In this document: piece by piece, positions 39,170 through 45,287 of the stretch
Layout of the letters: each line of letters begins with the position of its first letter
Position numbering within the stretch: position 1 is the stretch's first letter
Source: an uncultured Ruminococcus sp.
GTDB lineage: Bacteria; Bacillota; Clostridia; Oscillospirales; CAG-382
DNA length: 64,000 bases
NCBI GenBank assembly: GCA_964530795.1
Contig: CAZHBX010000001.1
Span: 92-64,091 of the forward strand
Reading direction: 5' to 3'
Notes under the pieces: model-generated
Seen by the model: the letters and a program-made list of their open reading frames with translations, nothing else
Told to the model about the DNA's origin: nothing
The model's database searches: none
Program-made: the position numbers and the translations under genes

Positions 39170-40288
39170 TTACGATTGCAAAAAGGACATGAACGCGTTC
39201 TTATTTTCGATCGCGCTCGTCGTCGGGCGGCCGAGGTCTTTGCGGGCGCCGATGGCGCACTTGATCTCCAGGAAGGTCAGTTCGCGGCTTTCCTTCACGT
39301 CACGCAGAGCGGTTTCCAGTTCCTCCGAAGTTCGCGCCGTCAGGACGCGCGGGTAGCCGCACGCCTTCGCGACCGCGTACAGGTCAACGCTTCCCGCCGC
39401 CGTCGGCATCCCGCCGACGCTCTCATGCGCGCAGTTGTTGAGCAGGACGTGGACGAGGTTCTTGGGCTTCACGCTGCCGATAACCGCGAGCGCGCCCATA
39501 TGCATCAGCAGCGCCCCGTCCCCGTCGAGGCACCAGAACCGTTTCTCCGGCTTCTGCAGCGCCGCGCCGAGCGCGATCGACGAGCTGTGCCCCATCGACC
39601 CGACGGTCAGAAAATCCCGCCCGTGCCCGACGCCTGCCGCCTCACGCAGCTCGAACAGCTCGCGGGACGCTTTCCCGGTCGTACAGACGACCGCGTCCTC
39701 CCCGCTGGCGATGAGCAGGCGGCGAATCGCCGCCTCTCGCGTTAAAGGGTAGCCGTTGCGATAAACCCTGCGCCCGGCATAGGTCAGCGCACCCTTGCGA
39801 ATGACAAAAGCAACCTGCTTTCCCGCCGCGAGCAGTACACGGAAGCCGTTCATCGCCTTTTGCAACTGTTCCTCTGTCGTCTCCTTCCCGACAACGAAAC
39901 AGGAAACGTCCATCGTTTCCAGCAGTCGGACCGTCACTTCCCCCTGGAACCGGTGCTGCGGCTCGTCCGGCACACCGGGCTCCCCCCGCCAGCCGACGAC
40001 GAACACACACGGAATCGCGTAGACCGACCTGTTGAGCAGGGAGGCGAGCGGGTTGACCGCGTTCCCCTCCCCGCTGTTCTGGAGGTAAACCAGCGGGACT
40101 TTGCCGGTCGCGAGGTGGTACCCGGCGGCCAGCGCGACGCAGTTTCCCTCGTTCGCCGCAATCAGATGACATCGGGGGTCCTCCCCGCAGGTATCCAGCA
40201 GATAATCGCACAGCGGTCGAAGCAGGGAATCCGGCACCCCGGTATAGAAATCCGATCCCACGATGCGCAGAAAATCGATGACTTGCAT
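39170..40288 (-). CDS. ppd: Phosphonopyruvate decarboxylase (ThDP-dependent)
   Basis: 372 aa. The N-terminus (DFYTGVPDSLL, ANEGNCVALAAGY) and the ThDP motif GDGALLMH...LLNN are typical of Ppd/AepY/Fom2. It lies directly downstream of PEP mutase. Confidence 0.85.
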   Translation of the reverse strand: MQVIDFLRIVGSDFYTGVPDSLLRPLCDYLLDTCGEDPRCHLIAANEGNCVALAAGYHLATGKVPLVYLQNSGEGNAVNPLASLLNRSVYAIPCVFVVGWRGEPGVPDEPQHRFQGEVTVRLLETMDVSCFVVGKETTEEQLQKAMNGFRVLLAAGKQVAFVIRKGALTYAGRRVYRNGYPLTREAAIRRLLIASGEDAVVCTTGKASRELFELREAAGVGHGRDFLTVGSMGHSSSIALGAALQKPEKRFWCLDGDGALLMHMGALAVIGSVKPKNLVHVLLNNCAHESVGGMPTAAGSVDLYAVAKACGYPRVLTARTSEELETALRDVKESRELTFLEIKCAIGARKDLGRPTTSAIENKNAFMSFLQS

Positions 40289-40308: not shown

Positions 40309-41604
40309 CTACAGCTCGTCGATGAGGGTGATGATATCCTTAATCGGCATCAGCCGGTCGTCGACCTCTTTCGCGCGGTGGTAGCGCAGGATGTCCTCCG
40401 CCGTGCGCTGCATCGCCGGGAAGGCGCTGCGCGTGAGCTGGTTGGCGTAGATGACGATATTGACCCCGTGGGCCGCCAGTTCCTCTTCCGTGACGCTGTT
40501 AAAGGAGGACGGCACGACGACGAGAGGGGTGTGCGGGTCGGTCCCGCGGAAACGGTCGCAGAATTCGAGAATCTGCGACGGGTCCTTCTTGCGGCTATGG
40601 ATCATGATCCCGTCCGCTCCCGCGCCGACGAACGCCGACGCGCGCGTCAGCGCGTCCTCCATGCCTTTTTCGAGGATCAGGCTCTCGATGCGGGCGATGA
40701 TCATGAAGTCCTCGGTCAGCTGCGCATGCTTGCCGGCCGAAATCTTGGCGCAGAACTCCTCGACCGGGGCCTGCTCCTGCTCGACTTCCGTACCGAACAG
40801 GCTGTTTTTCTTCAGTCCCACCTTATCCTCGATGATAACCGCGCTGACCCCCATCCGCTCGAGCGTGCGGACGTTATAGACGAAGTGCTCGGGAAGTCCG
40901 CCGGTATCACCGTCGAGGATGACCGGTTTGGTCGTAACCTCCATAATATCATCGATCGTACGCAGGCGGGAGGACATATCGACCAGTTCGATGTCCGGTT
41001 TTCCCTTCGCCGTCGAGTCGCAAAGCGAGCTCAGCCACATCGCGTCGAACTGGTCAAGCCGGCCGTTATGTTCGACGACAGTCTTTTCGGCAATTAACCC
41101 GGTCAGCCCGCTGTGCGCTTCGAGCGCCTTGACGATCGGACAGATGCGGATCAATTGCCGCAGCCGCTTGCGACGGTACTCCGGCATGGCGAGTTTCTCT
41201 TTCAGTTGGTTGTCCACCTCGCGGACGGCTTCGTTTCGAGTATAGGGCACGTCAAGGATCTGCCCGCCGTAAGCGGAAAGCAGCGACTCGACGCTCGCGC
41301 GGATTCCCGTCATCGGACCGACCAGCCAGTTGTCGCCGTGGATGACGTAATCCGGACGCAGGGCCGGGATAACGTCGGTGTAAAGCATATCGTTCTGCAC
41401 GACGACCTCCTCCACCCCGTCGATCTCGCCGTATAGCCGCATCCGCTCCTCAAGCGATTTGGTTGGGAAACGGTTGAAGCGAATCAGCGCTTCGTCCGAA
41501 AGCGCCCCGACGATGACCTTGCCGTAGCGGTGGGCCTGTTCGACGATGTTCAGGTGCCCTTCGTGGATGACATCCGTGCAGAAGCAGGCGTAAACGGTTT
41601 TCAT
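40309..41604 (-). CDS. Bifunctional cytidylyltransferase / phosphoenolpyruvate mutase (Fom1-like architecture)
   Basis: The N-terminal ~130 aa form an HxGH nucleotidyltransferase fold (CFCTDVIHEGHLNIV). The C-terminal isocitrate-lyase-superfamily domain carries the Ppm-diagnostic EDKVGLKKNS (EDK-X5-NS). Confidence 0.9.
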   Translation of the reverse strand: MKTVYACFCTDVIHEGHLNIVEQAHRYGKVIVGALSDEALIRFNRFPTKSLEERMRLYGEIDGVEEVVVQNDMLYTDVIPALRPDYVIHGDNWLVGPMTGIRASVESLLSAYGGQILDVPYTRNEAVREVDNQLKEKLAMPEYRRKRLRQLIRICPIVKALEAHSGLTGLIAEKTVVEHNGRLDQFDAMWLSSLCDSTAKGKPDIELVDMSSRLRTIDDIMEVTTKPVILDGDTGGLPEHFVYNVRTLERMGVSAVIIEDKVGLKKNSLFGTEVEQEQAPVEEFCAKISAGKHAQLTEDFMIIARIESLILEKGMEDALTRASAFVGAGADGIMIHSRKKDPSQILEFCDRFRGTDPHTPLVVVPSSFNSVTEEELAAHGVNIVIYANQLTRSAFPAMQRTAEDILRYHRAKEVDDRLMPIKDIITLIDEL

Positions 41605-41651: not shown

Positions 41652-42827
41652 TCAGCGGAATTTATCGATGATTTCACGGACGAGGAAATCCGCCGTCTCG
41701 TCGATGCGGTCAAACGGGACGTGCTTGGGCAGGTTCGTCCCGAAGGCGGTCCGACACTTTTCGAGTAGTTCGTCGGTATAGGTCAGCACCCCGCCTTCGA
41801 CCCGCTCGATTCCGTCGAGATAGATGGATTCGCGGTTCTTCCGACGCATTTCCGCAAGCGAAAACGGCTTTTCGAGCACCTCCGCGCGGATGTGCTCGTC
41901 CCGCCCGTCGAGCAGCACCGGGTACCCGCCGAGTTCGCCGAACGCGCCGGGAATATGCAGCTTGCGCACCTGCCGGTCCCGCACGACGGCAAGACAGGCG
42001 CGGAGAATCTCGTAGTTGCTCGACGCGTTCATCATGTTGCGCTTCGCGTCGATTGGCATGGGGATGGCGCAGCGGGCGAACAGCTCGCTCTGCGCGACCG
42101 ACAGGACTTCCCCGCGGTAACGCAGCTCCAGCAGCAGCTCCTGCCCTTCCGCCTGCCCCTCCTTGCTGATGCAGACGTCGTGAAAGTGGGAGGCGGCGAA
42201 GGTCACGTCGATGTTGTAAGGGTCGGGAATACCGAGCAATTCCCCGGTGGCGAGCTTAAAGCGGTAGACGAGGTGGTTAAGGTTGCCGCTGCCGAAATCG
42301 GGATACGGAAGCCCCGCGGACTTCAGCCACGGCAGAATCGCGTCGGAATAGGACGTGTTGACGACGATCGCGTCCGGACTCGCCACTTCGCACGCCCGCA
42401 TGAGGTTACGCACGTACTTGACCGAAAGCGGCGCCCAGATGCCGTAGGCGCGGACATTCTTCCACGAGATGCTGCCGTACTTCAGCCCGGCGTAAGCGCG
42501 GCTGCTGTTGACGATGAAATCCGGCTGCCATGCGGAAAGCACCTCCGCGATGGACGGGACGTCGTCGAGGTTGACCGTGTCGAAGATGCGGACCGGCCCG
42601 CGGCAGCGCCCGCGAATGGACGTCGCGACCCGCAGGATATTCACATCGGAAATCAGTTTTTCCGGGTTCCGTCCGGCGACGGCCAGCTCGACGCCCTCGT
42701 CCGCGTCCGAAAGCAGGTAGTCGAGCAGATAGTGCCCGACGCTCCCGAGCCCAACGATGAGGATGCGGGCCTTGCGGGTTCCGAGCGGCTCGCGCAGCAG
42801 GTTGAGTTTGCGTTCCAACGGTGTCAT
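41652..42827 (-). CDS. NAD(P)-binding Rossmann dehydrogenase, saccharopine-dehydrogenase-like (tentative)
   Basis: N-terminal ILIVGLGSVGHYLLDYL (GxGxxG) and about 390 aa overall. An AGGAGGA RBS is present and the ATGA start overlaps the upstream gene. The family placement is by eye only. Confidence 0.55.
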   Translation of the reverse strand: MTPLERKLNLLREPLGTRKARILIVGLGSVGHYLLDYLLSDADEGVELAVAGRNPEKLISDVNILRVATSIRGRCRGPVRIFDTVNLDDVPSIAEVLSAWQPDFIVNSSRAYAGLKYGSISWKNVRAYGIWAPLSVKYVRNLMRACEVASPDAIVVNTSYSDAILPWLKSAGLPYPDFGSGNLNHLVYRFKLATGELLGIPDPYNIDVTFAASHFHDVCISKEGQAEGQELLLELRYRGEVLSVAQSELFARCAIPMPIDAKRNMMNASSNYEILRACLAVVRDRQVRKLHIPGAFGELGGYPVLLDGRDEHIRAEVLEKPFSLAEMRRKNRESIYLDGIERVEGGVLTYTDELLEKCRTAFGTNLPKHVPFDRIDETADFLVREIIDKFR

Positions 42828-43585
42828 GGCGTTTCCTCCTTGTTTTCGGGAATTCTGTCGAAATCCGAAACGGTATTGCAGTTGATCCAGCTTTCAAACG
42901 GGAGCATCCGATAGCTTTCCCGGTCCCGCCCGCCGAAGTACCTGCCGACGAAGGTCAGGTTCGTGCCCTGCCAGTCGCGTTCCGGCGTTTCCCGCACGAG
43001 CGCGCGCAGGCGGCCCGGGTCGGCAAACTTCCAGACCTGCCCGGAGTTGCGGATCTCCGTGAAGGGTTCGTCAACGCGCAGGGCGCCGTGGTCGGTGTCG
43101 TAGAGGTAATGCACATGCCCGCGCAAGTCGAGATAGAAAGCGACGGCTTTGTCCGCCGTAATGGGTTCGCGGTTATAGGTCATCACGTCCGCCGGACACT
43201 CACACACGATGGAAAACGACGGCGTATCGAGGTACAGATCCCCCTCGGCGAAGACCAGCTCGTCGAACGCCCCCTTGCAGGCTTCCAGCAGTCCGCAGTA
43301 CAGACTCCAGCCAGAACCGTACCGCTCGTAGGACAGGTTATCGACGAGGGTCAGACGGTCCGCAAGATCGGGAAACTCCCGACGGACGGTCTCCTCCAAT
43401 TCCCCGAAGCGGTACCCCCCGACGAGGATGTAGCGGTCGAACGGAACCAGCTGCCGCAGCAGGCGGGCAAGCAGGCAGGTCGAAAAGTCCCCCCGATGGT
43501 ACAGGCATTTGACGCATTCCCGCCCGACCGAGCGCGAGAACCGTGTTGCCATCCCGGCGACCGTCACCAACAGCACACGCTTCAT
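42824..43585 (-). CDS. LicC/MobA-like nucleotidyltransferase (candidate phosphonate cytidylyltransferase)
   Basis: N-terminal VAGMATRF (G-x-G-x-R signature of sugar/alcohol-phosphate nucleotidyltransferases). ATG 43585 overlaps the upstream stop as ATGA. Confidence 0.65.
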   Translation of the reverse strand: MKRVLLVTVAGMATRFSRSVGRECVKCLYHRGDFSTCLLARLLRQLVPFDRYILVGGYRFGELEETVRREFPDLADRLTLVDNLSYERYGSGWSLYCGLLEACKGAFDELVFAEGDLYLDTPSFSIVCECPADVMTYNREPITADKAVAFYLDLRGHVHYLYDTDHGALRVDEPFTEIRNSGQVWKFADPGRLRALVRETPERDWQGTNLTFVGRYFGGRDRESYRMLPFESWINCNTVSDFDRIPENKEETP

Positions 43586-44571
43586 TTTCGCAGCTCCCAC
43601 ACGCACGCTTCTATGCCCTTTTCAAGCGGGACGGATGGGGCCCAGCCGGTGCGGGAGCGGATCTTCTCGGTATTCAGCACCCGCCGCTCCGGGTCCGACG
43701 CCCGATAGCCCTTGAACGTAATCTTCGGGTCGGTCACGCCGAGCTTGTCGGCACACAGCCGCACGAGGTCGAGAATGGAGATTTCCTCCTCCGTCGCGAC
43801 GTTGTAGACGCTGCCGTCGAGGGCTTCCGGCGAACGGATCAGGGCGAGCACCGCCGAGCAGCTGTCCTCATTGTAGAGGAAGGTCCGGCGATTCTTTCGG
43901 CTGTTTTCCAGCAGCTCCACCCCGCCGGTGTCGCGCAGCTGGTGCAGGATATGCGGGATGATGTGCTTCGGGTAAAGCTCGCTCTTGCTGTAGACGTTCG
44001 CGAAGCGGATCGAGCAGCCTTTGATCTGCCCCTCGTTCACCGCGTCGCGCAGGAAGAATTCGGTCAGCAGCTTTCCGGTCGCGTAGCTGGTTCGCTGGCT
44101 GTGTTCGGCGTTCGCGAGACGGATATAATCGCTCTCCTTTACCCCGCCTTCCGCCCAGGACGCCATGGAATAGACCTCCGACGTCGAGCAGTTGATATAG
44201 ACCTCCGCCCCGGCTGAGATCGCCTGGTCGAGGAACCGCTTCATTCCGACGACGTTGGTCTGAAAGGTGCGGTTGATATGGTAAAAATGTTCCGTATGCA
44301 CCACGGCGGCGCAGTTGACGTAGACGATTCTGTCACAATGCGGTTTTTCCGCGAGCACCTCCTGCCGGATCCTCTCCATCTGCGCCGGGTCGTTCAGGTC
44401 GAACGGGTGGAAGGCGAAGAGCGGGTTGTCCCGCAAATCCTCGACCGACGCGAAGGAGGACGCAAAGAAGTTGTCAAAGCCGATGACCTTCTGCCCCGCC
44501 TTGGTCACTTGTCGGGCGAGCTCGCTGCCGGTCATGCCGGTCACGCCGCTGACGACATACAGTTCTTTCAT
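43582..44571 (-). CDS. NAD-dependent epimerase/dehydratase (extended SDR)
   Basis: GVTGMTGSEL glycine-rich motif, the YATGK catalytic Y-x3-K and a length of about 330 aa. Confidence 0.85.
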   Translation of the reverse strand: MKELYVVSGVTGMTGSELARQVTKAGQKVIGFDNFFASSFASVEDLRDNPLFAFHPFDLNDPAQMERIRQEVLAEKPHCDRIVYVNCAAVVHTEHFYHINRTFQTNVVGMKRFLDQAISAGAEVYINCSTSEVYSMASWAEGGVKESDYIRLANAEHSQRTSYATGKLLTEFFLRDAVNEGQIKGCSIRFANVYSKSELYPKHIIPHILHQLRDTGGVELLENSRKNRRTFLYNEDSCSAVLALIRSPEALDGSVYNVATEEEISILDLVRLCADKLGVTDPKITFKGYRASDPERRVLNTEKIRSRTGWAPSVPLEKGIEACVWELRK

Positions 44572-45287
44572 ATCCCTTTTTCCAGCCTTTCCCGGTAGAA
44601 ATCGTCTGTCTGCCCGCAGAAAGTCTTTTGCTCCGCGGCGACGTCGTACGGTACTTTTTGCAGTCGCACGTCACCGGTCGCCGTGTCGAGCAGGGCGAAC
44701 TGGGCGTGCGGCACGTGGTTGCGGGGCTGCCCGACCGAGCCGGGATTGAGGAACGCCGTCCGCTTGCGGTTACGGTGGGACGGGTCGTCCGCCGGGTAGC
44801 AGACCTCGAAAAAATGCGGGAGGTGGGAATGCCCGGAGAACACGTAGTCGTAAACCCGGCAGGCATCCGGTTGCGGTCCGGGACGAACGGACCCCCAGTA
44901 CACATCGTTCGGGCTGCCGTGTACGGCGAGGCAGTATACCCCATCGGCGTCAAACGCGCAGGGACCGTCCGTCAGTCCGTGCAGGTACGCGAGGGTGCTT
45001 TCGGTCAGCACGTTTTGCGTGTAGCGAGCACTCAGCCGCCCGCGCTCGGTCGAAAAGCGGGAGAAGTCCCCGTCGAGGACAGCCTGCTCGTGGTTGCCAC
45101 GCAGGTTGCAGAGCGCCGGAAAGGGCCACGACCGCACGAGCGAAACCACCTCGTTCGACCGCATTCCGTAGTCAATCAGGTCGCCGAGCAAAACCAACCC
45201 GTCCGGATTCGCACGTTTCAGCGCCTCGCCGACCGCGCGGGTCGCTTCCAAGTTGCCGTGCAGGTCGGATAGGATCGCAAGCTTCAT
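44568..45287 (-). CDS. Calcineurin-like metallophosphoesterase
   Basis: Motifs LSDLHGN, LLGDLIDYG, GNHE and GHSH appear in canonical order. It is the first gene of the operon. Confidence 0.85.
   Translation of the reverse strand: MKLAILSDLHGNLEATRAVGEALKRANPDGLVLLGDLIDYGMRSNEVVSLVRSWPFPALCNLRGNHEQAVLDGDFSRFSTERGRLSARYTQNVLTESTLAYLHGLTDGPCAFDADGVYCLAVHGSPNDVYWGSVRPGPQPDACRVYDYVFSGHSHLPHFFEVCYPADDPSHRNRKRTAFLNPGSVGQPRNHVPHAQFALLDTATGDVRLQKVPYDVAAEQKTFCGQTDDFYRERLEKGI

Follow-up and report, generated by a model that had tools for sequence, protein, structure and literature searches.

Phosphonoacetaldehyde (PnAA) has, to our knowledge, only three biochemically established fates in pathways of this kind, namely transamination, reduction by an Fe-ADH, and oxidation. 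The locus studied here raises the question of what happens to PnAA once phosphonopyruvate decarboxylase (Ppd) has released it. The locus lies in a window of 64,000 nucleotides from an uncultured Ruminococcus sp. whose genome (95.8% complete) contained no AEP transaminase (AEPT) of either type. The gene of interest, referred to as the target, encodes an oxidoreductase and stands just upstream of the genes for PEP mutase (Ppm) and Ppd.

The target gene and its operon

The target is an ATG-to-TGA open reading frame of 391 amino acids on the minus strand, at positions 41652-42827 of the window. The length and coordinates given in the initial annotation hold, while the strand should be read as minus, as the plus-strand reading of the same positions has an internal stop and odd residues throughout and was rejected. 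The N-terminal GxGxxG motif that had been described was found at residues 22-34 (ILIVGLGSVGHYL), where it takes the form of a GLGSVG Rossmann motif. With a GC3 of 0.83 and a GC2 of 0.41, the gene resembles the remaining genes of the window, which is 60% GC. Furthermore, more than 2,900 homologues were collected at E<=1e-3, the majority with a length of exactly 391 amino acids, and the AF2 model reached a pLDDT of 95.6 and a pTM of 0.94. Codon-position composition, homologues and model confidence thus show the target to be a real gene and not a chance reading frame. A search for fused forms of 686-2000 amino acids found none, and no Pfam match was seen in the N-terminal 295 residues of the 668-residue P0194.

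The target and its five neighbors form one minus-strand operon in the window, as follows:

44568..45287, minus strand: cytoplasmic metallophosphoesterase, YfcE/Ap4A-hydrolase-like, the first gene of the operon (Metallophos_2, E 4.8e-19)
43582..44571, minus strand: extended SDR with UDP-glucuronate-decarboxylase-like motifs (Pfam Epimerase and GDP_Man_Dehyd)
42824..43606, minus strand: DUF6564 protein, LicC/PntC/IPCT-like nucleotidyltransferase (PF20202, E 1.3e-76)
41652..42827, minus strand: the target, a 391-residue NADP-type oxidoreductase with an LDH/MDH/GH4-like fold, of an uncharacterised family (ORF and translation)
40309..41604, minus strand: Fom1-type fusion of an N-terminal HIGH-type cytidylyltransferase (CyTase) with PEP mutase, Ppm (PF01467, PF13714, TIGR02320)
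39170..40288, minus strand: Ppd, phosphonopyruvate decarboxylase (TIGR03297, 455 bits against a cut-off of 312.5)

The metallophosphoesterase matches 3rqz (E 2e-15) and 3qfm (E 2e-7) in the PDB and, as its Metallophos_2 match begins at residue 1, should lack a signal peptide. The best PDB match of the SDR is UXS1 (E 1.2e-14), with which its GFDNFF, STSEVY and YATGK motifs align; these motifs are kept in 66-72 of the 86 SDR reading frames of the loci examined. They mark the SDR, by sequence, as a putative member of the NAD+-retaining, redox-neutral class, and the target would thus be the only net reductase of the cassette. The DUF6564 gene, which is probably translated from the ATG at 43585, carries a VAGMATRF signature at the N-terminus of its translation. 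Its AF2 model (pLDDT 91.8) was matched by Foldseek to 4jd0, which we take to be an inositol-1-phosphate CTP transferase, to LicC (1jyk) and to PntC-AEPT (6pd2), with E values of 5e-11 to 1e-9 and a TM of about 0.7, and we therefore consider it a nucleotidyltransferase. In the fusion protein, PF01467 covers residues 11-97 and PF13714 residues 156-406, and the match to TIGR02320 (410 bits) is well above the cut-off of 320.

Two statements of the initial annotation regarding gene order agree with these data. The start of the target overlaps the stop of the upstream nucleotidyltransferase gene (ATGA, 42824-42827), with AGGAGG preceding the target ATG, as expected of translational coupling. On the other side, the Ppm fusion begins 47 nt past the end of the target and is followed by Ppd. 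Pfam revealed no Fe-ADH or PF00107 gene in the operon, and a scan of the operon for promoters and terminators gave counts no higher than in shuffled sequence.

Family, fold and cofactor site

The initial annotation had assigned the target, by its overall look, to the group of saccharopine dehydrogenase, carboxynorspermidine dehydrogenase and homospermidine synthase. What remains of this resemblance is the N-terminal NADP-binding Rossmann domain. In the PDB, a profile of the target family retrieves 8deb (E 1.6e-7, residues ~6-113), 4ina and 4rl6 at E values of 1e-7 to 3e-6, and these matches span only the first 90-110 residues. Similarly, PF03435 is found at residues 22-112 only, with a score below its threshold (21.9 bits against 25.1, E 2.4e-4). 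The Sacchrp_dh_C domain (PF16653), which in saccharopine-type enzymes binds the amine/carbonyl pair, was not matched in the target by Pfam, and its absence weighs against amine-coupled chemistry. NCBIfam gave no match to the target, and a direct search of the PDB with its sequence returned only chance-level matches (e.g., a beta-lactamase at E 0.002).

When the whole protein is considered, the predicted structure points elsewhere. The best Foldseek matches of the model in the PDB are LDH/MDH (E 2e-9, target-normalised TM 0.64-0.66). By VIA, malate and lactate dehydrogenases align over 273-285 residues with Z scores of 21.8-19 and an rmsd of 3.0-3.6, the best being the malate dehydrogenase 6qss (Z 21.8, rmsd 3.0, 273 residues), and GH4 enzymes score Z 14.7-19. 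Saccharopine-type enzymes reach only 11.8 (4ina), 10.1 (5l76) and 9.8 (1e5l), over 184-198 residues. Atlas structure clusters present the same ranking, with TM values normalised by the target of 0.74-0.75 for LDH and 0.45 for the saccharopine dehydrogenase cluster. The earlier family assignment thus appears, on the model, to be wrong for the most part. What the saccharopine reductase and carboxy(nor)spermidine dehydrogenase group (PF03435 with PF16653; 8deb, 4ina, 1e5l) has in common with the target is a weakly similar N-terminal NADP domain and a reaction type, the NADPH-driven reductive condensation of an amine with a carbonyl, that has been proposed for the target as well; the whole-structure match, in contrast, is limited to about 190 residues at Z 10-12.

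The likeness to LDH/MDH (6qss, 4plt, 1hyh) and GH4 (1up7, 5c3m) lies in a shared two-domain fold of ~275-310 residues (Z 21.8-17) and, for LDH/MDH, also in the N-terminal Rossmann domain and the placement of the catalytic His; the orthologues further have an Arg that may correspond to Arg171. Identity to both groups is, however, only 12-18%. Neither Ldh_1_N (PF00056) nor Ldh_1_C (PF02866) was matched in the target by Pfam at E<=0.01, a PF02866 search of the whole genome returned nothing at E<=0.001, the target included, and PF02056 was not found in the target either. A comparison with a true L-LDH by hhalign gave a probability of 22% and an E of 9e-4. The target further differs from LDH/MDH in an NADP-type cofactor site (Gly-Arg for Asp), in an extra Gly-rich HxPGxxGxxGGYP loop (residues 291-303), in a C-terminus longer by ~60 residues and in its context, which is phosphonate biosynthesis rather than central metabolism. 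According to the model, then, the target is the founder of an uncharacterised, probably NADPH-dependent oxidoreductase family built on the LDH/MDH scaffold.

The residues that define catalysis in LDH are partly retained. His214 of the target aligns with LDH His195, the His of GEHGE, in the hhalign comparison and with the corresponding His of LDH 3wsv, and is conserved in 72 of 73 family members. Arg189 falls at the position of LDH Arg171 by hhalign, in a stretch where alignment confidence is low; it is invariant in orthologues, but among 64 distant members only 19 have Arg there, and most members carry Arg or Lys at position 191. Asn184 lies at the LDH Asp168 position, again within a low-confidence stretch, and Tyr160 replaces Asn140. 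Across the family, the invariant residues are R53, N157, D162, N182, H214, H291 and N331. As Gly52-Arg53 occupy, by hhalign, the site of the NAD-specific Asp that follows beta-2 in LDH, and as Arg53 is kept in 64 of 73 members, the sequence points to NADPH as the likely cofactor.

Linkage across genomes

To describe how constant these neighbors are, we counted them in 60 species loci with enough flank. Near the target orthologue, Ppm was present in 59/60, Ppd in 55/60, DUF6564 in 59/60, the SDR in 57/60 and the metallophosphoesterase in 59/60, and all five partners were found together, within ~5 kb, in 52 of the 60. Co-occurrence with Ppm, which the initial annotation had singled out for examination, is thus close to universal. 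In four loci a Ppm::PF12804 fusion takes the place of the PF01467 fusion. In the five genomes where Ppd is absent nearby, a true Ppd is encoded elsewhere. Two loci that appeared to be exceptions (L003 and L027), with a 691-amino-acid CBS and Citrate_ly_lig protein following the module in place of Ppm, proved to be none, since their cluster continues and encodes Ppm, Ppd, AEPT and PntC ~10 kb further downstream. Beyond the five partners, only LicD, in 37 loci, and a GT2, in 17, were recurrent, and the conserved set of the species loci held no glycosyltransferase or sugar-phosphate-forming enzyme.

Among 399 sampled genomes of the class, an orthologue occurs in four, all of them among the 27 that are Ppm-positive. 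One genome (G001) has a four-gene module set apart from ppm, and genomes with an unlinked module still carry both Ppm and Ppd. AEPT was found within 10 kb in 2 of 80 loci. Nevertheless, the cassette cannot simply be a substitute for the transaminase, as it is also present in genomes that already have AEPT (G001, G002, L036, L065).

More distant homologues were sampled through ten individual contigs. Homologues of 32-39% identity keep the cassette partners in shuffled order, some on phage-like contigs, including reshuffled full gene sets in L112 and L113. In four loci (L102, L109, L110, L113) the homologue directly follows Ppd without an adjacent nucleotidyltransferase. In locus L102, CyTase::Ppm, Ppd and the homologue stand by themselves, the other three cassette genes being absent within 8 kb. 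The nucleotidyltransferase-then-homologue pair is kept in L103, L108 and L112. In L103 no Ppm was visible within 17 kb, and in L108 a PhpC-type Fe-ADH stands right after Ppd in addition to a trio of SDR, DUF6564 and homologue. A viral-contig scan with P0293 found no relatives. Taken over all groups, species-level genomes with the cassette number at least 281, among them Clostridia, Bacteroidota, Spirochaetota and archaea (methanogens as well as Thermoplasmata), with homologues on phage genomes. Cultured carriers are Roseburia sp. 1XD42-69, Bianquea renquensis, Pilosibacter fragilis and a Kineothrix sp.; the full cassette was found in archaeal MAGs of Methanobrevibacter, Thermoplasmata and Methanomethylophilaceae (L080, L081, L097).

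The slot following Ppd, in which the initial annotation had placed the target, is therefore well supported by the near-universal linkage to Ppm and Ppd, by the retention of both in unlinked genomes, by the homologues of 32-39% identity and by a genome that lacks AEPT. The target probably performs the step that follows PnAA.

Candidate reactions and their meaning

We consider it likely that the target acts on PnAA as a reducing enzyme. PnAA from Ppd would be its substrate, with hydride passing from NADPH to C2 and His214 donating the proton. Known PnAA reductases that fill this slot after Ppm and Ppd are PhpC, FomC and DhpG, of the group III Fe-ADH fold, and PbfG, a Zn MDR of PF00107 (PMC13576164). 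They have in common with the target a nicotinamide cofactor and PnAA as presumed substrate. The fold of the target, however, is unrelated to theirs, and neither Pfam nor NCBIfam detected Fe-ADH (PF00465) or ADH_zinc_N (PF00107) in it; its product may not be 2-hydroxyethylphosphonate (HEP), and it comes with an obligatory set of three more genes that are missing from PhpC-type clusters.

The simplest reaction would be the NADPH-dependent reduction of PnAA to HEP, which the Fom1-type domain would turn into CMP-HEP for LicD. The target would then add a third class of PnAA reductase, one of LDH fold, to those of PhpC/FomC and PbfG. We regard this as a serious if doubtful option. It agrees with the fold, the catalytic His and the putative Arg171 equivalent, since known LDH/MDH members interconvert C=O and CH-OH, and with an operon in which no Fe-ADH or PF00107 gene is found. 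It also fits the partner of Ppm, as Fom1, the only characterised precedent of a fused PF01467 cytidylyltransferase, acts on HEP (PMC6697681). In the early fosfomycin pathway, as the work of Cho et al. (2017) is related in PMC6697681, Fom1 (CyTase::Ppm), Fom2 (Ppd) and FomC go together with transient cytidylylation and hydrolysis by FomD. The minimal cluster L102 looks like Fom1-Fom2-FomC, and the cassette itself has the fusion, Ppd and a reductase slot in common with that pathway, as well as a phosphodiesterase-type enzyme that could remove the nucleotide handle. On the other hand, its reductase and hydrolase belong to other families, it has no radical-SAM methyltransferase or epoxidase, it adds a second nucleotidyltransferase and the UXS-like SDR, and it resides in glycan loci of anaerobes rather than in an antibiotic cluster. 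Plain reduction would leave SDR, DUF6564 and metallophosphoesterase (57-59 of 60 loci), three strictly co-conserved genes, without a function, and it does not explain why L108 should keep its homologue in addition to a PhpC-type Fe-ADH. Moreover, a matching cluster has been reported together with a solved product in one organism only, and that product is a nitrogen-containing phosphonate (PMC8942020).

That organism is Fibrobacter succinogenes, which produces N-hydroxyethyl-AEP without AEPT and has PF12850 and PF16363 genes beside ppm, as in archaeal clusters; reductive amination with ethanolamine has been proposed as the origin of this compound (Li & Horsman 2022, PMC8942020). The 'Post-Ppd other' neighborhoods of the same study (F. 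succinogenes GCF 60, archaeal GCFs 869/685) combine, as the cassette does, Ppm, Ppd, a PF12850 phosphoesterase and a PF16363 SDR without AEPT. The study names neither the target family nor DUF6564, since neither had a usable Pfam model; the putative link between F. succinogenes and the target is drawn through the two shared domains that are named there. No match bearing the name Fibrobacter came from a profile search with the orthologue-like sequences that diverge most. As F. succinogenes, reported with the same cassette domains and without a transaminase, makes N-hydroxyethyl-AEP, we lean slightly to an amine-coupled reduction over plain reduction to HEP, while giving it somewhat less than an even chance. 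A redox-neutral SDR and the full cassette in archaeal MAGs also speak for it.

In our best explanation, the six genes, from metallophosphoesterase to Ppd, act as a mobile cassette whose product is a nucleotide-activated phosphonate head group that LicD-type transferases attach to surface glycans. In the amine-coupled version, PnAA would first form an iminium with a donor that carries both a hydroxyl and an amine (L-serine, ethanolamine or ethanolamine phosphate). The target would reduce the carbon of this iminium, and the N-substituted 2-aminoethylphosphonate (AEP) so produced would then be tethered to CMP by the nucleotidyltransferase. If serine were the donor, the UXS-like SDR could shorten this product through an oxidative decarboxylation that yields CMP-N-(2-hydroxyethyl)-AEP, a route that is of our own devising. 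In its most specific form, the target would be a PLP-independent, opine-synthase-like reductive aminase of LDH/MDH fold that uses NADPH to join PnAA to L-serine or ethanolamine, and once the product is tethered to CMP, oxidation, decarboxylation and re-reduction by the SDR would take off the serine carboxylate and lead to the same compound; we consider this conceivable but rather unlikely. The leading version assigns no role to the metallophosphoesterase or the second nucleotidyltransferase. We know of no LDH/MDH-superfamily enzyme that reduces imines or forms C-N bonds, the characterised members all acting on C=O or CH-OH, and an N-substituted AEP thus no longer follows from family membership.

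Two further readings place the target on other substrates. Its substrate might be a nucleotide-linked product of DUF6564, for example a carbonyl or sugar-like group bound to CMP or NDP, rather than a free phosphonate, so that SDR, phosphoesterase and target would constitute a separate sub-pathway of nucleotide-sugar type, the product of which merely accompanies the phosphonate. Translational coupling to the nucleotidyltransferase, the pairing of the two in L103, L108 and L112, the separation of the module from ppm in G001, the structural proximity (Z 17-19) of GH4 enzymes, whose substrates are phospho-sugars, and nine invariant basic residues in orthologues, more than a small dianion needs, are all in line with this. 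Nonetheless, every module-bearing genome tested also has Ppm, four homologues adjoin Ppd without a nucleotidyltransferase and the conserved set lacks glycosyltransferases and sugar-phosphate-forming enzymes, and we judge both the nucleotide-linked substrate and the separate sub-pathway improbable. More improbable still is an MDH-like reduction of phosphonopyruvate, the oxaloacetate analogue, to phosphonolactate, a reaction that has been proposed for VlpB of the valinophos cluster. Malate dehydrogenases are indeed the closest fold, and the putative Arg171 equivalent, an alpha-carboxylate binder, is invariant in orthologues and nearly so in the group of 30-39% identity. This reaction was also predicted by Li & Horsman (PMC8942020) for a true MDH beside ppm in Paenibacillus larvae. 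A true Ppd, however, is present in 55 of 60 loci and elsewhere in the genome for the other five, distant homologues stand directly after Ppd, and Ppd would compete for the substrate while already providing Ppm with its thermodynamic pull.

The literature searched contained no biochemical study of the target family or the cassette, no mention of DUF6564 and nothing that brings together PEP mutase, phosphonoacetaldehyde and saccharopine dehydrogenase. The cassette is probably a fourth, uncharacterised PnAA route, and the reaction of its net reductase, once identified, would define a new branch point after Ppd. A function would follow for several thousand proteins now called 'hypothetical' or mis-annotated as 'saccharopine dehydrogenase', as well as for DUF6564, and the origin of N-hydroxyethyl-AEP might be explained. 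If the target does form a C-N bond, such chemistry would be new to the LDH/MDH scaffold. Cell-surface phosphonates are common in gut and rumen microbes and, as the cassette is spread over bacterial and archaeal groups with homologues on phage genomes, it can be viewed as a mobile tool for repainting the surface of cells. If the reductive-aminase reading is true, CMP-N-(2-hydroxyethyl)-aminoethylphosphonate would be made from universal metabolites alone, and the six genes could for this reason be used by bacteria, methanogens and phages alike.

Gene and operon layout

The oxidoreductase gene, which the initial annotation placed at 41652-42827, is a real open reading frame of 391 aa, although it is read on the minus strand, from the ATG at 42827 to the TGA at 41652. 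Its glycine-rich motif, ILIVGLGSVGHYL, covers residues 22-34, an AGGAGG box lies 5' of the start, and its codon-position GC (0.64/0.41/0.83) is as in the other genes of the window, which has 60% GC. It belongs to a cassette of six genes, of which the first four are referred to below as the four-gene module:

45287-44568, minus strand: metallophosphoesterase (operon order 1)
44571-43582, minus strand: extended SDR (operon order 2)
43606-42824, minus strand: DUF6564 protein (operon order 3)
42827-41652, minus strand: oxidoreductase (operon order 4, between DUF6564 and a 47-nt spacer)
41604-40309, minus strand: PF01467 cytidylyltransferase fused to PEP mutase, CyTase::Ppm (TIGR02320, 410 bits)
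40288-39170, minus strand: phosphonopyruvate decarboxylase, Ppd (TIGR03297, 455 bits)

The coupling to a nucleotidyltransferase gene proposed earlier is seen in the shared ATGA (42824-42827), which contains the oxidoreductase ATG and the TGA of the upstream gene, and only the 47-nt spacer separates the oxidoreductase from the CyTase::Ppm and Ppd pair, directly upstream of which it had been placed. The upstream gene is properly read as a nucleotidyltransferase, as the DUF6564 model (pLDDT 91.8) matches inositol-1-phosphate CTP transferase, LicC and the phosphonate cytidylyltransferase PntC, and the AGxxTRF signature is kept. The SDR aligns best with human UDP-glucuronate decarboxylase (UXS1), with GFDNFF, STSEVY and YxxGK in register and kept in orthologues; the same motifs are those of GDP-mannose dehydratase as well as of UXS1. 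Extended SDRs of the UXS type retain bound NAD+ and proceed through oxidation, elimination or decarboxylation, and re-reduction, with no net redox change. As the cassette SDR belongs to this class, the 391-aa enzyme is the sole net reductase of the operon. The SDR motifs suggest that an oxidise, decarboxylate-or-eliminate, re-reduce step may take place on a nucleotide-tethered phosphonate, a step for which we know of no example in phosphonate biosynthesis. The metallophosphoesterase is cytoplasmic and closest to YfcE/Ap4A-hydrolase-type enzymes. The sole LicD gene of the genome lies on another contig (C15:34635-35303), and the phosphonate operon is thus apart from its presumed transferase.

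Fold, family and active site

Assignment to the saccharopine-dehydrogenase group, made initially by eye, holds for the cofactor domain only and is not supported for the whole protein. Pfam matched the saccharopine-dehydrogenase NADP-binding domain to residues 22-112 only, at a sub-threshold 21.9 bits (cut-off 25.1); the protein had no Pfam match to the saccharopine-type C-terminal domain and no NCBIfam match. An AlphaFold model built from a 73-sequence family alignment (pLDDT 95.6) has lactate and malate dehydrogenases (LDH, MDH) as its top PDB matches by Foldseek (E 2e-9). In an exhaustive VIA search with this model, MDH, LDH and hydroxyisocaproate dehydrogenase reached Z 21.8-19 over 273-285 residues and GH4 glycosidases Z 19-15, while saccharopine-type enzymes reached 11.8, 10.1 and 9.8 over ~190 residues, corresponding to the Rossmann half. 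The saccharopine assignment is confined to the cofactor domain because the family profile, when compared with PDB sequences, splits: residues ~6-113 match carboxyspermidine/saccharopine dehydrogenases and ~123-279 match L-LDH. The classical LDH/MDH C-terminal domain PF02866 had no match in the whole genome (1.72 Mb, 95.8% complete). A large protein collection contains more than 2,900 relatives, the majority of exactly 391 aa and with 60-66% identity, and when 1.84 billion cluster representatives were searched exhaustively, 435 were found at E<=1e-3.

Residues were mapped by profile alignment to a genuine L-LDH from another module-bearing genome (G001). H214 aligns with the catalytic His195, Tyr160 stands at the Asn140 position and Gly52-Arg53 in place of the NAD-selecting Asp of LDH; R189 falls at the Arg171 position and Asn184 at the Asp168 position, in a stretch where the alignment has low confidence. 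R53, N157, D162, N182, H214, H291 and N331 are essentially invariant among the 73 sequences. A Gly-Arg pair that follows beta-2 of a Rossmann fold is a sign of NADP(H) use. Given H214 on His195 and this NADP(H)-type Gly-Arg, the enzyme looks, by its residues, like one that donates hydride in biosynthesis and relays protons as LDH does.

Linkage to Ppm and Ppd, and distribution

When one genome was scanned for each species, 281 loci were obtained, and the best 80 of these were analysed; they belong to Lachnospiraceae, Oscillospiraceae, Christensenellaceae, Muribaculum, Treponema, Methanobrevibacter, Thermoplasmata and Methanomethylophilaceae, and the closest relatives (89-90%) are from rabbit-gut Clostridia MAGs. 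Partners were counted in those 60 loci that have 4 kb or more of flank on each side. The linkage to Ppm on which the initial hypothesis depended is found in 59/60, with DUF6564 and the phosphoesterase also in 59/60 each, the SDR in 57/60, Ppd in 55/60 and all five in 52/60. The single locus lacking Ppm has it 10 kb downstream, each genome of the five lacking Ppd encodes a true Ppd at another site, and the L099-L101 lineage, with the four-gene module alone, nevertheless has Ppm elsewhere. ORF clustering over the 80 loci gave only LicD (37 loci) and GT2 (17 loci) as further conserved partners, the remainder being varied glycan genes. The cassette is tied to Ppm and Ppd and usually to LicD. Among 399 sampled genomes of the class, Ppm occurs in 27 and the orthologue in 4, each of which is also a Ppm carrier; this should be read descriptively, as related genomes are not independent. 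Several loci (L071 and four others; L005/L006 at 17-19 kb) carry flagellin or FliD genes no more than 10 kb from the cassette; flagellin glycans are one possible target of the phosphonate head group.

As the orthologue is patchy (4/399 genomes of the class, 0/14 of the same order) yet 53-62% identical in Methanobrevibacter, Thermoplasmata, Muribaculum and Treponema MAGs, its distribution indicates that the cassette has spread horizontally between inhabitants of gut and rumen.

Gene orders around homologues of 32-39% identity show that the oxidoreductase is the member of the set that remains beside Ppd, and also beside the nucleotidyltransferase. L102 has CyTase::Ppm, Ppd and the homologue with no other cassette gene within 8 kb; in L109 and L110 Ppd is followed directly by the homologue; L108 has Ppd, a PhpC-type Fe-ADH, then SDR, DUF6564 and the homologue; and the phage-like L112 and L113 carry all six functions, reordered, with a Ppm::PF12804 fusion. 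In the cultured Vibrio phage Va2 (L114, MW073017.1) the genes are scattered over the genome:

86429-87580: oxidoreductase homologue
80916-81707: DUF6564 gene
~109743-110417: PEP-mutase-family gene

In phage-like L103 the module stands with genes resembling choline kinase and LicC and with a BCCT transporter gene, and no Ppm is found within the 17 kb that were searched; this gene set may hint that amino alcohols are supplied to the cassette chemistry. L103:1-9164 also holds an archaeal-type phosphoglycerate-mutase-like gene and a 398-aa gene of no named family, and its kinase is choline/ethanolamine-like. The cassette genes of Va2, L112, L113 and L103 sit among DNA-metabolism genes.

Other variants were seen in bacterial loci. 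A Lachnospiraceae MAG (L003:11321-13396, the same as L027) has a 691-aa protein after the four-gene module, with a C-terminal Citrate_ly_lig/HIGH nucleotidyltransferase domain and a 500-residue N-terminus with a faint CBS match; copies 36-40% identical occur in L034 and L035. In L060-L063 (Hungatella, Lachnospiraceae, Clostridiaceae) an ORF of 521 aa that matched nothing in Pfam lies between DUF6564 and the oxidoreductase, which is followed directly by Ppd, and Ppm is fused C-terminally to PF12804 rather than to the usual N-terminal PF01467. Fusion of Ppm to PF12804 or PF01467 is found in most cases (PMC6697681).

Candidate reactions

Aminoethylphosphonate (AEP) transaminase, of class-V or PntC-fused class-I type, was not found in this genome (95.8% complete), and it occurs within 10 kb in just 2/80 loci. 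In a few genomes the module occurs alongside a canonical transaminase cluster, and the module product is therefore other than plain AEP. The oxidoreductase has this fold, type of cofactor site, retained His and place in the six-gene cassette, and we infer that it reduces C2 of phosphonoacetaldehyde. The reductive condensation with an amine proposed initially can be favoured only tentatively, at somewhat less than even confidence; to our knowledge, such amine-coupled reduction has no precedent in the LDH/MDH fold, which counts against it. It is favoured because it fits the position of the enzyme as a hub between Ppd and the nucleotidyltransferase, and because it fits the one product that is known chemically from a matching cluster: F. 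succinogenes, which lacks the transaminase, is reported to make an N-hydroxyethyl derivative of AEP, for which reductive amination with ethanolamine was suggested (PMC8942020), and F. succinogenes probably has an orthologue of the oxidoreductase. With serine as donor, the amine-coupled version would also give the UXS-like SDR a role, namely an oxidative decarboxylation that leaves the hydroxyethyl group.

Plain reduction to hydroxyethylphosphonate (HEP) suits the LDH/MDH scaffold and the analogy to Fom1, whose PF01467 domain cytidylylates HEP (PMC6697681), but it would leave three obligatory cassette genes idle. It is also awkward where a PhpC-type enzyme coexists (L108), the known phosphonoacetaldehyde reductases being PhpC-type Fe-ADHs and PbfG Zn-MDRs (PMC13576164), and we rate it slightly below the amine-coupled version. 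Action on a nucleotide-linked substrate is improbable, and reduction of phosphonopyruvate very improbable.

In the literature searched, neither this family nor DUF6564 was the subject of a study. The neighbourhoods of F. succinogenes (GCF 60) and of archaeal GCFs 869/685 have been listed among the unclassified 'post-Ppd' ones, with PF12850 and PF16363 genes noted as shared between them (Li & Horsman 2022, PMC8942020). The oxidoreductase represents an uncharacterised enzyme family, probably of branch-point oxidoreductases acting after Ppd, in a cluster type that is published but unclassified.
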